NCBI RefSeq assembly: GCF_032062105.1
Contig: NW_026919438.1
Location: 1 to 64,000, forward strand
DNA: 64,000 bases
From: Saccostrea cucullata
Lineage: Eukaryota
Reading direction: 5' to 3'
The translations under genes and the position numbers were made by a program. This document shows positions 9,520-18,736 of the stretch, piece after piece. The notes below the pieces were generated by a model. That model saw only the letters and a program-made list of their open reading frames with translations, searched no databases and was not told the DNA's origin. Position 1 is the stretch's first letter. Each line of letters starts with the position of its first letter.

Positions 9520-9862
9520 TGTAGCGAATTATTATGTAACTATGATTTGTTTATATAACATTGCTCCTCGCGAGCAATGGGTTTTTGTTTACATTGCATT
9601 GCTCCTCGCGAGCAATGGGTTTTATGTATAAATATAGGAGCGATTTTAGACAGACAGTCAGTCAGTTTTTCATATTCATTACGATCACTTCGGACAATTT
9701 TTATTTGGATTTTTATACTTACTGTGTTTATGTTATTGTGGATTTTAAAATGTGAATAAACCGTAAACTTGATTACTTGCGTATCATTTCAAGAATATTC
9801 ATTGGAAGAAATGGAAAACACTGAGAGTTATTCCCCTTAGACCGTATCGGAAAAACATTACA
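9520..9862 (+). repeat. 5' LTR (343 bp)
   Basis: TGTAGC...TTACA termini; TATAAA at 9627; AATAAA at 9755; duplicated 21-nt palindrome at 9559 and 9597; repeated at 18458, 44157 and 45995. Confidence 0.95.
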
Positions 9863-9872
9863 AATGGTGGCG

Positions 9873-11047
9873 AGACTGAAGCTCTACTGGTTTGAACGGT
9901 GTATAGCAAAGGAAGAGAAAATGTACTATATAAGTAGCTGGGATTGAAACTAAATAGAATAACGATCGTTGATAAAGTCTCTTTATGTTCTTAGTGTAGT
10001 CTACTTGTGTGCCAAGTTATACTGAAATCAGACCAAAACTGTAGGAGGAGTAGCATTTTGAAACAATTTTACAGACATTTCTATTTTTTGTAACCACGGC
10101 AACACCGTTCATCAAAATTAAAATTCGATACACAGAATTATGTATAGTGTATTCTACTTGTGTGCCAAGTAGTGAAATCAGACCAAAATGTACATTTTGA
10201 AACAATTTTACAGATATTTCTATGGATCAAAATCAAAAACCGATAAACAGAATTATGAGTGTATTCTATGTGTGCCAAGTTATAATTCAAACCAAAACTG
10301 TAGGAGGAGTAGCATTTTGAAAGAATTTCACAGAAATTTCTATTTTTAGTAACCACGGCAACACCGTTCATCAAAATCAAAAAAATTACAGAATTATGTA
10401 TCTTAGTGTATTTACATGTTTGTAATACTGAAATCAGACCAAAACTGAATTTCTGATGTAGGAGGAGTAGCATTTTGAAAGTATTTCACAGAAATTTCTC
10501 TTTTTAGTAACCACGGCAACACCGTTCATCGAAATCAAAAACCGATAAACAGAATTATGAATCTTAGTGTAGTCTACTTGTGTGCCAAGTTATATTGAAA
10601 TCAAACCAAAACTTTTAGTGAAATTTCTGTGAATTTGTGTATCTTATAATTGCCAAGTTATAATTCTGTGTGCATTTTGAAAGAAACAGAAATTTCTAAC
10701 CACGGGTTCATCAAAATCAAAAACCGATATACAGAATTATGTATCTTAGTGTAGTCTACTTGTGTGCCAAGTTATATGAAATCAGACCAAAATGTAGGAG
10801 GAGTAAAAGAATTTCACAGAAATTTCTATTTTTAGTAACCACGGCAACACCGTTCATCAAAATCAAAAACCGATACATAGAATTATGTATCTTAGTGTAG
10901 TCTACTTGTGTGCTTAGTTATATTGAAATTAGACCAAAACTGTAGGAGGAGTAGCATTTTGAAAAATTGTTTACAGACAGACGGACGGACGCCGGACGCA
11001 TTACTATCGCATAAGCTCTTCTGGTCTCTGACCAGTAGAGCTTAAAA
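9873..11047 (-). mobile_element. HINE-like family A element inserted antisense at the LTR/PBS junction (indel-rich copy)
   Basis: Reverse complement of 5650-6918: ACCAGTAGAGCT at ~11031-11042, (GACG/GACA)n at 10975-10998, degenerate 156-bp units, AGCTCTACTGGT at 9880. Confidence 0.85.
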
Positions 11048-11056
11048 CGGTACAAC

Positions 11057-11075
11057 TGGTGGCGGCCGGTGGGAT
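11057..11075 (+). promoter_or_regulatory. Primer binding site, tRNA-Leu type
   Basis: TGGTGGCGGCCGGTGGGAT approximates TGGTGGCAGCGGTGGGAT, the complement of the tRNA-Leu(AAG/TAG) 3' end; a partial copy TGGTGGCG follows the LTR at 9865. Confidence 0.75.
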
Positions 11076-11185
11076 TTAACAATTCCGGTGTGATATGACG
11101 ATTCAAATGGATTTCTTATAATCTGTCTATATTCTTGGAGTGATTTCTGTGTAAATTGGATTAATTCGTAAGCAGGAATTAAAGC

Positions 11186-17261: not shown

Positions 17262-18030
17262 ATATTGTGGGTGTGTGTTTTCGACAAATAGTCACTTGTA
17301 CCAGCATCAACGCGAACAACATAGAAGTGATTTGAATGTTATTAAATGTGAATATTGCCAAAAACTCTTTACTAGAAAATCAAATCTTAAAAGACATGTT
17401 AAAAACGTCCATAAGTTAGACGAGGACTTCATCAATGAGGCCTTAAATCCCCCGCGGAAGAAGATTCAACGACACAGCTTCATGGAGACCCGGAAACCGG
17501 TGTACGTTATGAGTGACTTTTATGAGGACATTTCCTCCGATGAGGAAGAGATGCATTATGCTGAGACTGCGCAGCCACTCGTTAGGGATTCATATCCGGA
17601 CTTAGACATCATTTCAGTGAATTCGGAAGACTTGCCGGAAGTAGATGACGCTTTTGTTAGTGAAATTCTGGGCGACATAGAAGAGGAAGAAACGTGTGCG
17701 CGACCAACAGAAGAATCTCTCGAGTCACCAGACGTGAGCGAAGCCGCGAACTCGTCATCAGAGGACAGTGATATGTATGACATGGACGATAACAACAATC
17801 GCGTAAGTGTCGAGACGTCAACCATATGCCTGGTGATGAAGAAGACGATTCGGACTAATCCTGACGGCACCGAGGAGATTAATCGCGAATCTCAAATTAT
17901 CTACTCAGAGAACGTAAATCCAGAGGAAGTAGACTTTCGTGATCTTGCCGAGGAGATTCTGGATGAGGTTCCGCGACACCTAGCGCCGAGTGCCCGTGTG
18001 CGGATAGTAAAGGGAGATTTGTCCTTGTGA
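17251..18030 (+). CDS. Gypsy ORF3: two C2H2 zinc fingers, basic NLS-like patch and long acidic region (259 aa)
   Basis: CEYC-x12-H-x4-H twice, PRKK, then a D/E/S-rich tract; lies between pol and the PPT, overlapping the end of pol; homologue at 44782. Confidence 0.85.
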   Translation: MICEYCGCVFSTNSHLYQHQREQHRSDLNVIKCEYCQKLFTRKSNLKRHVKNVHKLDEDFINEALNPPRKKIQRHSFMETRKPVYVMSDFYEDISSDEEEMHYAETAQPLVRDSYPDLDIISVNSEDLPEVDDAFVSEILGDIEEEETCARPTEESLESPDVSEAANSSSEDSDMYDMDDNNNRVSVETSTICLVMKKTIRTNPDGTEEINRESQIIYSENVNPEEVDFRDLAEEILDEVPRHLAPSARVRIVKGDLSL

Positions 18031-18443
18031 ACCGTGTAACAAACTAAAGGCCATACTGAAAAGTTGTGAACTCTAACAAAAGACTTGTGATCTATTAACA
18101 AGCTTTTATGTATATAATATTTAATTATTTTGACTTTGATTTTTATTATGTTTTAATGTCATGTTTGTAAATATTTTTTTTTTGTGCTTTGTTTGTCCGA
18201 AGGTGATTTATTGTTTACGTAGACTAAGTTTGCTAGGTGTAAGTTAATATGTTTACTGTTTCAACAAAATGATTTTATTATGGATTGTGTAGTAAAAATT
18301 TACTGATTTGGAGAAAATAATTGTTTATATAGCTAACGTTTAATTGTTTATGTATTTACTTTAAATTTTACCATCATGTTTAACTTCAAGAAATTATTTT
18401 TAGTTGTCTATTGTTTAATCATTTTGAACGGAGTCAAAAACTT

Positions 18444-18456
18444 AAGTGGGGGGGAG
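18444..18456 (+). promoter_or_regulatory. Polypurine tract
   Basis: AAGTGGGGGGGAG immediately before the 3' LTR; same motif at ~45981-45993. Confidence 0.9.
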
Positions 18457-18457
18457 T

Positions 18458-18736
18458 TGTAGCGAATTATTATGTAACTATGATTTGTTTATATAACATT
18501 GCTCCTCGCGAGCAATGGGTTTTTGATTACATTGCATTGCTCCTCGCGAGCAATGGGTTTTATGTATAAATATAGGAGCGATTTTAGACAGTTAGTCAGT
18601 CAGTTTTTCATATTCATTACGATCACTTCGGACAATTTTTATTTGGATTTTTATACTTACTGTGTTTATGTTATCGTGGATTTTAAAATGTGAATAAACC
18701 GTAAACTTGATTACTTGCGTATCATTTCAAGAATAT
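18458..18736 (+). repeat. 3' LTR, missing the last 64 bp
   Basis: Matches 9520-9798 with 4 substitutions. Confidence 0.95.

Follow-up and report, generated by a model that had tools for sequence, protein, structure and literature searches.

The element at positions 9520 to 18736 of the window (the whole 64,000-nt stretch of Saccostrea cucullata DNA analysed here) is a recent but broken copy of an env-less Ty3/Gypsy lineage, and its four-frame layout of ORF0, Gag, Pol and ORF3 is a lineage trait, common to about 12 diverged Ty3/Gypsy families of one genome. The covariation of ORF3 zinc fingers with repeated U3 sites across these families indicates that ORF3 is likely a self-targeting regulator of the LTR. 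On balance, we lean towards a reading in which the ORF3 of this env-less lineage would bind the U3 sites of its own element and activate them, while two hydrophobic segments of Gag would anchor capsid assembly.

The features of the window copy are collected in Table 1. All four reading frames proposed by an earlier, sequence-only reading were located, the duplicated U3 palindrome is present, and no env was found, the third ORF being a C2H2 and acidic protein. The young LTRs of that reading, with 4 differences in 279 nt, are accurate as a count, since exactly 4 differences separate 9520-9798 from 18458-18736, but the true LTR measures 343 nt, and the last 64 nt of the 3′ LTR are gone relative to sister copies. 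The copy, which had been taken as intact, is not: frameshifts near 12620 and 12780 disrupt Gag, and the ORF0 start codon, kept by six of six full-length sister copies, is missing. The nested repeat, a 1.18-kb stretch of the leader that is missing from the same six sister copies (~7.9-8.2 kb), carries inverted repeats in subterminal position as well as an internal array of ~150-nt tandem units and a microsatellite, has 2353 candidate copies genome-wide (best 93%) with a second copy at window positions 5648-6905, and is presumably of the Helentron-associated type; the primer-binding site is one that we take to be of tRNA-Leu type. Target-site duplications of 4 bp accompany nine of the 12 copies listed, the remaining three having unclear or mis-set ends.

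Table 1. Features of the element, in window positions.
Feature	Position	Strand	Description
5′ LTR	9520..9862	+	343 nt, TG...CA; sister copies align across 9520-9862 at both ends
U3 inverted site 1	9559..9579	.	two 8-bp arms around a 5-bp spacer, with GAG-CAA half-sites; putative target of ORF3
U3 inverted site 2	9597..9617	.	sequence identical to site 1; directly 5′ of TATA-like box
TATA-like box in 5′ LTR	9627-9634	+	motif position
AATAAA in 5′ LTR	9755-9760	+	motif position
Nested foreign repeat	9872..11047	+	5′-truncated; outside the Gypsy family proper
Repeated LTR end and primer-binding site	11048..11075	+	PBS 11057-11075, shared across families
ORF0	11318..11545	+	~75 aa; β-hairpin and Cys4 zinc-ribbon-like domain; open frame from 11204
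Gag	11600..13047	+	two frameshifts in window copy; ~480 aa in open sister copies
Two hydrophobic 19-aa segments of Gag	11867..12025	+	Gag aa 90-108 and 124-142, predicted to form a membrane hairpin with a loop of ~15 aa
Likely -1 ribosomal frameshift signal	13020..13081	+	slippery heptamer, stem, second stem (H-type pseudoknot)
Pol open frame	12909..17261	+	protease, RT (YLDD), RNase H, integrase; 1450 codons open
ORF3	17251..18030	+	259 aa; start overlaps Pol stop
Polypurine tract	18444..18457	+	sequence motif
3′ LTR	18458..18736	+	64 nt short; both U3 sites kept: 18497-18517, 18535-18555

The element shows the PR-RT-RH-IN order, TG...CA LTRs, primer-binding site, polypurine tract, short target-site duplication and Gag CCHC knuckle of Ty3/Gypsy elements (Metaviridae), with Pol matching RVT_1 (7.5e-38), RT_RNaseH_2 (9.2e-33), rve (6.4e-12) and Integrase_H2C2 (6.9e-16) in Pfam. 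Pol lies in the -1 frame relative to Gag and is likely reached by -1 frameshifting: the slippery heptamer is present in 12 of 13 loci examined and the second stem in 11, the first stem carries compensatory changes, and the folding z-score is only -1.35. In an RT-RH tree built by a quick method (50 of 66 rows kept, all elements of this genome), the ~12 families form one clade with an SH-aLRT of 100. The order ORF0, Gag N-terminus, Pol, ORF3 recurs in six of six full-length sisters and in 31 of 40 diverged loci, the latter picked by ORF0 match; independently of that choice, a hand count finds an ORF0 match upstream of RT-RH in 49 of 56 in-group rows versus 0 of 54 outgroup rows. Zinc-finger ORF3s are also found in outgroup Gypsy lineages. 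Judged by its LTR pairs, which are mostly 95-100% identical, the lineage is young and active.

ORF3 fits its initial description as a zinc-finger and acidic protein, with two canonical C2H2 fingers (aa 1-55) whose base-contacting residues stand at -1, 3 and 6, a YEDISSDEE motif (17521-17547), a disordered acidic linker and, at the C-terminal end, a conserved predicted hairpin and helix (aa 190-243). In structure comparison, they resemble tandem fingers bound to DNA (2drp; Z 6.5, rmsd 1.2, 55 aligned for the finger pair). No hydrophobic segment was detected in the near-identical ORF3 of locus L119, and a homodimer prediction for the C-terminal end, run without use of an alignment, scored 0.02. 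In four of five copies of family K, the fingers and the acidic part of ORF3 are encoded by two separate ORFs, the finger ORF being 75-79 aa long; the ORF3 tree has an unresolved topology. These ORF3s carry host-gene annotation (‘Cp190-like’), and zinc-finger counts in oyster gene sets are therefore inflated.

Repeated U3 motifs occur in 12 of 12 families, as inverted pairs with a 5-bp spacer in nine (imperfect in family B) and as direct GAGGAG repeats in three. Finger 2 with Arg/Asn/Arg pairs with GAG in nine families, and the three exceptions have a shifted site: Glu6 with CAG, Lys6 with GAG or TAG, and Ser3 with GNG. At finger 1, Arg6 coincides with G in 5/6 and other residues in 0/6 (Fisher p 0.015), while Asn3 coincides with A in 10/10 and other residues in 0/2 (p 0.015), counts in which the families are not independent of one another. 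A covariation test on hand-picked half-sites gives p<=1e-4. Scans that dispense with hand-picked sites give p 0.004-0.017 with one finger recognition code, and p 0.017-0.069 with the code of PMC12264921, the reversed-U3 control giving p 0.19. Unbiased scans place a family's own U3 first or tied-first in 5 of 12 families (6 in one run, with wide ties); the family of the window copy does not stand out, since its Gln6 lies over C, where the code predicts A, and family F has Arg6, yet C in three of four half-sites. In a blind prediction for family I, the GAG, the inversion and the spacer were correct and the second triplet was wrong (TGA seen, CTn predicted); the prediction set also included two void cases, L078 (mis-parsed finger; the same as family D) and L090 (no LTR left), and two loci with truncated LTRs, L096 and L103. 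The element-encoded transcriptional regulator of the sequence-only reading thereby gains moderate independent support from the finger/U3 covariation, binding and activation being predicted.

The same observations admit a second explanation, which we regard as unlikely: the U3 repeats would be sites for host factors, ORF3 would be an anti-silencing or chromatin-targeting protein acting elsewhere, and the covariation would reflect linkage. ORF3 and U3 are physically linked at a distance of 300-450 nt, and some covariation is expected without binding because the two are inherited together. The modest p values with the published code and the failed triplet in family I also fit this explanation, as does the spacer of the window's site, which contains CTCGCGAG, a sequence that we take to be like a known host promoter motif. 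Linkage does not, however, predict the directional code matches (Glu6-C, Lys6-T, Ser3-any, Asn3-A), and the complete palindrome hardly occurs outside these LTRs, with 113 occurrences in 1.17 Gb against 0 for the control and LTR-type spacers in nearly all of the 50 sites listed. Outgroups point the same way, in that the ORF3-less L120, L123, L126 and L130 contain no repeated 5-bp-spaced palindrome and the ORF3-bearing L121 contains four, a control weakened by L124 and L129, which bear ORF3 without a repeated palindrome.

For the self-targeting reading, the first step of the proposed mechanism is ORF3 synthesis from the 3′-terminal part of the RNA, where ribosomes would either reinitiate past the Pol stop or translate a subgenomic RNA. 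The candidate splice signals noted earlier were not borne out: an AG precedes the ORF3 start in only 8 of 18 copies listed (4 of 10 families), and eight RNA or probable-RNA runs, with a depth of ~1 in raw reads and otherwise contigs only, yielded no GT-AG joints. Two X4 joints were rejected because their ends are not GT-AG and fall in a stretch that families have in common. Finger 2 would read GAG and finger 1 the next triplet, so that two ORF3 molecules could occupy inverted half-sites 5 bp apart, with two such sites directly upstream of the TATA box. YEDISSDEE, a likely CK2 phosphosite similar to SPOC-domain ligands, may together with the acidic region recruit host machinery, creating a positive feedback private to each family.

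The regulator is probably an activator. ORF3 could instead repress from the same U3 sites, or act both ways, as a copy-number control that limits transposition, an alternative that we also hold to be unlikely. It draws on the similarity of YEDISSDEE to the SPOC-binding ends of SMRT and NCoR (YETLpSDSE, YETLpSDSDD; described in the available part of PMC9834408). Near-nil expression in adult-type libraries fits it as well, the three oligo-dT libraries giving very low counts of 70, 42 and 43 reads of 11-13 million, and the split ORF3 of family K could yield a finger-only blocker. Nevertheless, the sites are placed like enhancer elements, upstream of the TATA box rather than across it, long acidic tracts typify activators, and a young and active lineage sits poorly with repression.

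The Gag protein combines an SP/TP-rich N-terminus bearing an RRxL-x(0-3)-F motif, two hydrophobic segments, a capsid-like domain and a CCHC knuckle (zf-CCHC E 3.7e-4, and alignment). All 12 Gags from 12 loci contain both segments (hydropathy 1.96-3.69) and the RRxL motif and lack Gly2. Among database homologues, both segments are present in all 59 that have a complete N-terminus, one of them from Mytilus edulis, in a search whose seed profile includes the segments and from which 24 of 83 matches, short or without the anchor motif, were set aside. The loop between them has invariant P and T and a near-invariant Y. The membrane-targeted capsid suggested previously is consistent with this conservation, and the segments are predicted, from hydropathy, to anchor capsid assembly on a cell membrane. 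Lacking Gly2, Gag would use a two-helix hairpin in place of a myristoylated matrix, with both ends cytosolic, at the ER or nuclear envelope. The RRxL and SP/TP motifs might tie release to the cell cycle, an idea that rests on minimal SP/TP sites and RRxL, since only two of the 12 Gag N-termini contain full CDK consensus sites.

The sequence-only reading suggested an Env-independent route for the anchored Gag. Such a role, in release from the cell or in transfer between cells, would place the 15-aa loop on the extracellular side; it is quite improbable, its one basis in the present data being the predicted anchor. Conservation of the hairpin and of its loop residues is compatible with it, and Env-free transfer by the MDG1 sORF2 membrane protein offers a precedent (available part of PMC11952523). 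Yet sORF2 is a separate single-pass protein, whereas this Gag has no ectodomain, signal peptide or Gly2. Moreover, an integral membrane Gag would build particles at the membrane of insertion, which is first the ER.

ORF0 has 12 invariant alignment columns, among them C35, C38, C64, C67 and C69, and is modelled as a β-strand Cys4 protein (pLDDT 88). Its C-x2-C...C-x2-C spacing fits TFIIS/RPB9-type zinc ribbons. A fold search found no match at E<=0.001 in PDB or BFVD, the best comparisons being weak (TFS4, Z 2.9, rmsd 3.8, 46 aligned; TFIIS, Z 2.4), and the profile match to an RPB9/RPC10 chimera (E 0.009) is equalled or bettered by C2H2 repeats; the ORF0 of the window member has no Pfam family above the cut-off. 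Look-alikes in the Atlas are unnamed small phage or bacterial proteins. ORF0 may be a small zinc-binding protein translated before Gag, and our best guess, the weakest step of the mechanism, is that it assists transcription or RNA handling in the nucleus as a cofactor.

Every ORF of the lineage is under purifying selection. Pooled within-family pN/pS is 0.37 for ORF0, 0.21 for the Gag N-terminus, 0.32 for the Gag hydrophobic region and 0.24, 0.34 and 0.19 for three ORF3 regions, compared with 0.30 for RT and 0.19 for IN (all p<4e-6; 9-16 of the 19 candidate pairs entered each region, after exclusion of those with stops or <=70% identity). The sister families retain the accessory ORFs, with values far below the ratio near 1 at which they would have counted as unconstrained. 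That the additional frames arose by chance, or decay as passengers of a single insertion, as the broken Gag and ORF0 of the window copy might suggest, has a negligible probability, being refuted by these ratios (0.19-0.37) and by 30-60% identity between families whose synonymous sites are saturated.

We give slightly less than even credence to a broader account, namely a widespread bivalve Ty3/Gypsy group whose own C2H2 factor would co-evolve with U3 palindromes as a private positive-feedback switch per family, with a membrane-hairpin Gag replacing the matrix in one sub-lineage and building capsids on internal membranes. C2H2 proteins are usually seen as host weapons against LTR elements (PMC10547256, available part); here the element appears to carry one for its own use, its promoter evolving alongside. 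Two questions become testable: LTR self-transactivation by retrotransposons outside Retroviridae, and how finger and site change jointly without lost contact, with ~12 natural pairs in one genome. If true, the group would exemplify a Tas/Tax-like circuit that arose by convergence outside Retroviridae, its families would supply a natural series of finger-site pairs, and an integral-membrane Gag would be a capsid-assembly route absent from the literature searched.

The premise that accessory genes are foreign to Ty3/Gypsy is contradicted by known accessory ORFs in Cer1 (CERV; PMC10309623), MDG1 (sORF1/2; PMC11952523) and bdelloid elements (ORF3s; PMC5408684), as described in the accessible parts of these papers. 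Mollusc Ty3/Gypsy clades (Thomas-Bulle et al. 2018, PMC6238403) share the PR-RT-RH-IN order, LTRs, PBS, PPT and 4-bp duplication; ‘ORF’, ‘zinc’ and ‘PBS’ are absent from the main text of that paper, so the present layout is not described there. The literature searched, outside most subscription journals, contained no self-binding factor of such kind and no membrane-anchored Gag, and the layout was not found in print; Repbase, Dfam, GyDB and the PMC6238403 supplements lay outside this scope, and a database entry may exist. Errantiviruses and other Env-carrying Gypsy elements encode a transmembrane-anchored Env glycoprotein in their third ORF, in contrast to the C2H2 and acidic ORF3 here, and complex retroviruses have the env that the window element lacks. 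Foamy virus Tas, HTLV Tax and HIV Tat offer a functional parallel, and Tas binds DNA directly. The likeness is an accessory gene at the 3′ end whose product putatively acts on the U3 of its own element; the difference is the lack of env, a Gypsy-type Pol and host-type C2H2 fingers, in a system known from sequence, with no spliced mRNA seen. HIV Tat is also covered in the available part of PMC7264820. The additional ORFs of bdelloid and plant elements (PMC5408684, PMC7264820) likewise include a non-env ORF3 between pol and the 3′ LTR, but they encode esterase, exonuclease, transmembrane or unknown proteins, and ‘zinc’ occurs in the available text of neither paper. Cer1, a Ty3/Gypsy element of C. 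elegans, likewise encodes a regulatory accessory protein, CERV, which has a putative Cys-rich C4 finger; CERV, however, works in RNA export and shares sequence with Gag (PMC10309623, available part), and it is set beside ORF0 and ORF3 by description only. The Drosophila MDG1 group (PMC11952523, available part) comprises env-less Gypsy elements in which small ORFs precede gag and encode a nuclear protein and a membrane protein, the latter a separate single-pass FAST-like ORF, often with Gly2; here the hydrophobic segments lie inside Gag, Gly2 is absent in 12 of 12, and the upstream ORF is a Cys4 protein. VANC of VANDAL DNA transposons (PMC5735166, available part) resembles ORF3 as an element-encoded sequence-specific protein with repeated targets differing between families; however, VANC is an anti-silencing factor of a plant DNA transposon, whereas the element here is a retrotransposon of an animal, its protein has C2H2 fingers and its inverted sites lie close to the promoter.

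The order ORF0, Gag, Pol, ORF3 is a trait of the lineage and not an accident of one copy. Genome searches placed both ORF0 and ORF3 at more than 100 positions each, and the order ORF0, Gag N-terminus, Pol, ORF3 was kept in 31 of 40 diverged loci fetched via their ORF0 match (the remaining 9 are each missing one component, owing to a deletion, an insertion or the end of a contig), so that the accessory frames of the sequence-only reading do recur in sister families. An RT-RH search, independent of this choice of loci, gave two groups of rows, 56 with an identity of 66-100% and 54 with 58-62%, with an ORF0 match upstream in 49/56 and 0/54, respectively (hand count). 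In an RT-RH tree built by a quick method with 50 of 66 rows kept, the in-group, with its 12 families, forms one side of a branch with a support of 100. In pooled disjoint within-family pairs, ORF0 had a pN/pS ratio of 0.37; within Gag, the N-terminus had 0.21 and the hydrophobic region 0.32, and the three parts of ORF3 had 0.24, 0.34 and 0.19, beside 0.24 for capsid and 0.19 for integrase; the accessory frames, at 0.19-0.37 against 0.30 for RT, held up in the proposed selection check. Separately, the long-branch in-group element L112 (G000:C14100) combines a Mytilus-type Gag with two segments and an LTR full of short tandem repeats; it gave no ORF0 match, and of ORF3 just a remnant is left. 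Another copy (G000:C16840:58971-60089) is 100% identical to the window element in RT-RH protein and only 95% in ORF3, being either a recent relative or a recombinant.

The window copy itself is damaged: only Pol and ORF3 remain open, at 1450 codons and 259 aa, whereas Gag carries two frameshifts and ORF0 lacks a start codon, so the four frames first read here stand as the lineage's layout and not all as intact genes of this copy. Likewise, the 4 differences between its 279-nt repeats were confirmed, but sister copies align over a longer segment at both element ends, giving an LTR of 343 nt and a 3' LTR 64 nt short in this copy. Six full-length sisters measure ~8 kb and lack the nested repeat, which is a copy, truncated at its 5' end, of a tandem-repeat element present in high copy number. 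The ~20 nt duplicated on either side of it (LTR end and PBS) suggest a template switch or repair event, and the identical 4-mer beside both LTRs may indicate that the short 3' end was itself integrated, or may be chance. Pol lies in the -1 frame, preceded by a slippery heptamer that is conserved and by a structure of two stems showing compensatory changes. Four open frames elsewhere in the window resemble part of a Mutator-type transposase, two fragments of tyrosine recombinases and an OTU-like domain.

Coordinates of features in the window
Feature	Positions	Strand	Remark
LTR element	9520-18736		
Segment aligned at both element ends in sisters	9520-9862		
Nested tandem-repeat element	9872-11047		
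LTR-end/PBS duplication	9863-9871; 11048-11065		flanks nested repeat
Shared 4-mer	9516-9519; 18734-18737		beside 5' LTR and truncated 3' LTR
Further tandem-repeat copy	5648-6905	-	same element as nested
Further tandem-repeat copy	about 2487-3000	-	same element as nested
Second copy of the window element's family	44157-46285		internally deleted; matches family A outside the next row
Integrase end and ORF3 finger half	44491-45075		92% identical to family H
Open frame	49023-49934	-	spotted by eye
Open frame	52739-53827	+	spotted by eye
Open frame	23909-24397	+	spotted by eye
Open frame	27957-28427	+	spotted by eye

ORF0 was modeled as a hairpin with a Cys4 ribbon in a confident fold (pLDDT 88); fold searches returned weak zinc-ribbon matches only, and sequence searches scored C2H2 repeats and RPB9/RPC10 about equally, both weakly. 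About 35 relatives occurred among 45 matches in 1.84 billion representatives, none of the 10 looked up being named; a role as nuclear cofactor is a guess. All 12 Gags carry two hydrophobic segments separated by ~15 residues, an RRxL-x(0-3)-F motif and 2-6 SP/TP sites upstream of the first segment, and none has Gly2. The pair recurs in 59/59 database homologues with a full N-terminus (of 83), including Mytilus edulis; Mizuhopecten yessoensis is represented by a partial homologue, and no such pair was found in 11 outgroup elements. The membrane-anchored Gag of the sequence-only reading is conserved as paired segments, anchoring itself being predicted; a two-helix hairpin would leave the N- and C-terminus of Gag together on the cytosolic side.

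The ORF3 model comprises two canonical fingers (pLDDT >90) that structurally match DNA-bound tandem fingers, a middle region that is acidic and disordered and, at the C-terminus, a hairpin with a helix; its closest named homologues are from Saccostrea cucullata, which points to a rock oyster as the likely host. The invariant YEDISSDEE resembles SPOC ligands of SMRT/NCoR (PMC9834408), a likeness that serves as a lead only. In family K (L056, L057, L062, L063), ORF3 is split in 4/5 copies, young ones included, into a 75-79-aa finger ORF and an acidic/C-terminal ORF with its own start, that is, two proteins or a programmed frameshift. The candidate splice signals found no support at the low read depth covered: three oligo-dT runs (70, 42 and 43 reads across the element) contained no splice joint, contigs of four further runs covering ORF3 (one within a 7.8-kb piece) had none at its start, and AG precedes that start in just 4/10 families.

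In every family, motifs recur in the 170 nt that precede the TATA box, as inverted half-sites with 5-bp spacing in nine and direct GAGGAG repeats in three. Finger 2 Arg-1, Asn3 and Arg6 accompany GAG in nine families; at position 6, Glu goes with CAG and Lys with TAG at one site, and Ser at position 3 with a variable middle base. In finger 1, Arg6 pairs with G in 5/6 and Asn3 with A in 10/10. The Arg-G, Asn-A and Glu-C contacts agree with the code in the accessible part of PMC12264921. Permutation gave p <=1e-4 with hand-picked half-sites, a value biased by the picking; scans free of it gave p 0.004-0.017 with one recognition code and 0.017-0.069 with that of PMC12264921 (control p 0.19), and did not single out the window's own family. 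Family F has one position at odds with the code, and a prediction written beforehand for family I had GAG, inversion and spacer correct and the second triplet wrong. Genome-wide, 113 copies of the window-type palindrome were counted versus 0 for the control, nearly all of those listed carrying LTR spacers. Even without binding, linkage of ORF3 and U3 could make them covary, though it would not account for the direction of the covariation. The element-encoded regulator gains moderate support from the covariation, and the unmarked own family and the mispredicted triplet count against it. Judged from sequence, ORF3 probably binds the U3 sites of its own LTR and, if bound, would probably activate transcription. 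Families A and H have finger residues and U3 site in common; the A/H chimera in the window would therefore stay self-matched.

Three outgroup lineages (L121/L122, L124/L125/L127 and L128/L129) also have an ORF behind pol that encodes two C2H2-like fingers together with a Ser/acidic motif, which makes the finger ORF older than the four-ORF lineage; outside the fingers and this motif there is no similarity to ORF3 (hhalign 68% and 27%). The L128/L129 ORF ends in a BTB_2 domain (E 3.5e-13), and the L121 LTR contains four inverted sites whose arms lie 5 bp apart. Three other outgroup lineages had neither finger ORF nor repeated 5-bp-spaced inverted sites, which were also missing from two ORF3-bearing outgroup elements. 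ORF0 and the membrane hairpin are the distinguishing marks of the four-ORF lineage.

Every feature tested fits Ty3/Gypsy, and errantivirus, retrovirus or MDG1-type identity was rejected. Accessory genes are already in the literature for Gypsy elements: CERV (PMC10309623), sORF1/2 (PMC11952523) and extra ORFs of bdelloid and plant elements (PMC5408684, PMC7264820). ORFs are not discussed in the main text of the principal survey of mollusc LTR elements (PMC6238403). The papers searched, for the most part at the level of abstracts, described neither a C2H2 factor that a Gypsy element encodes and that matches this element's LTR nor an integral-membrane Gag. We tentatively propose, at somewhat less than an even chance, a bivalve Ty3/Gypsy C2H2 factor co-evolving with U3 palindromes as private positive feedback, one sub-lineage having a membrane-hairpin Gag. 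Foamy-virus Tas is one of the two nearest functional parallels to the role proposed for ORF3. The other, as far as the available sections of PMC5735166 go, is VANC.
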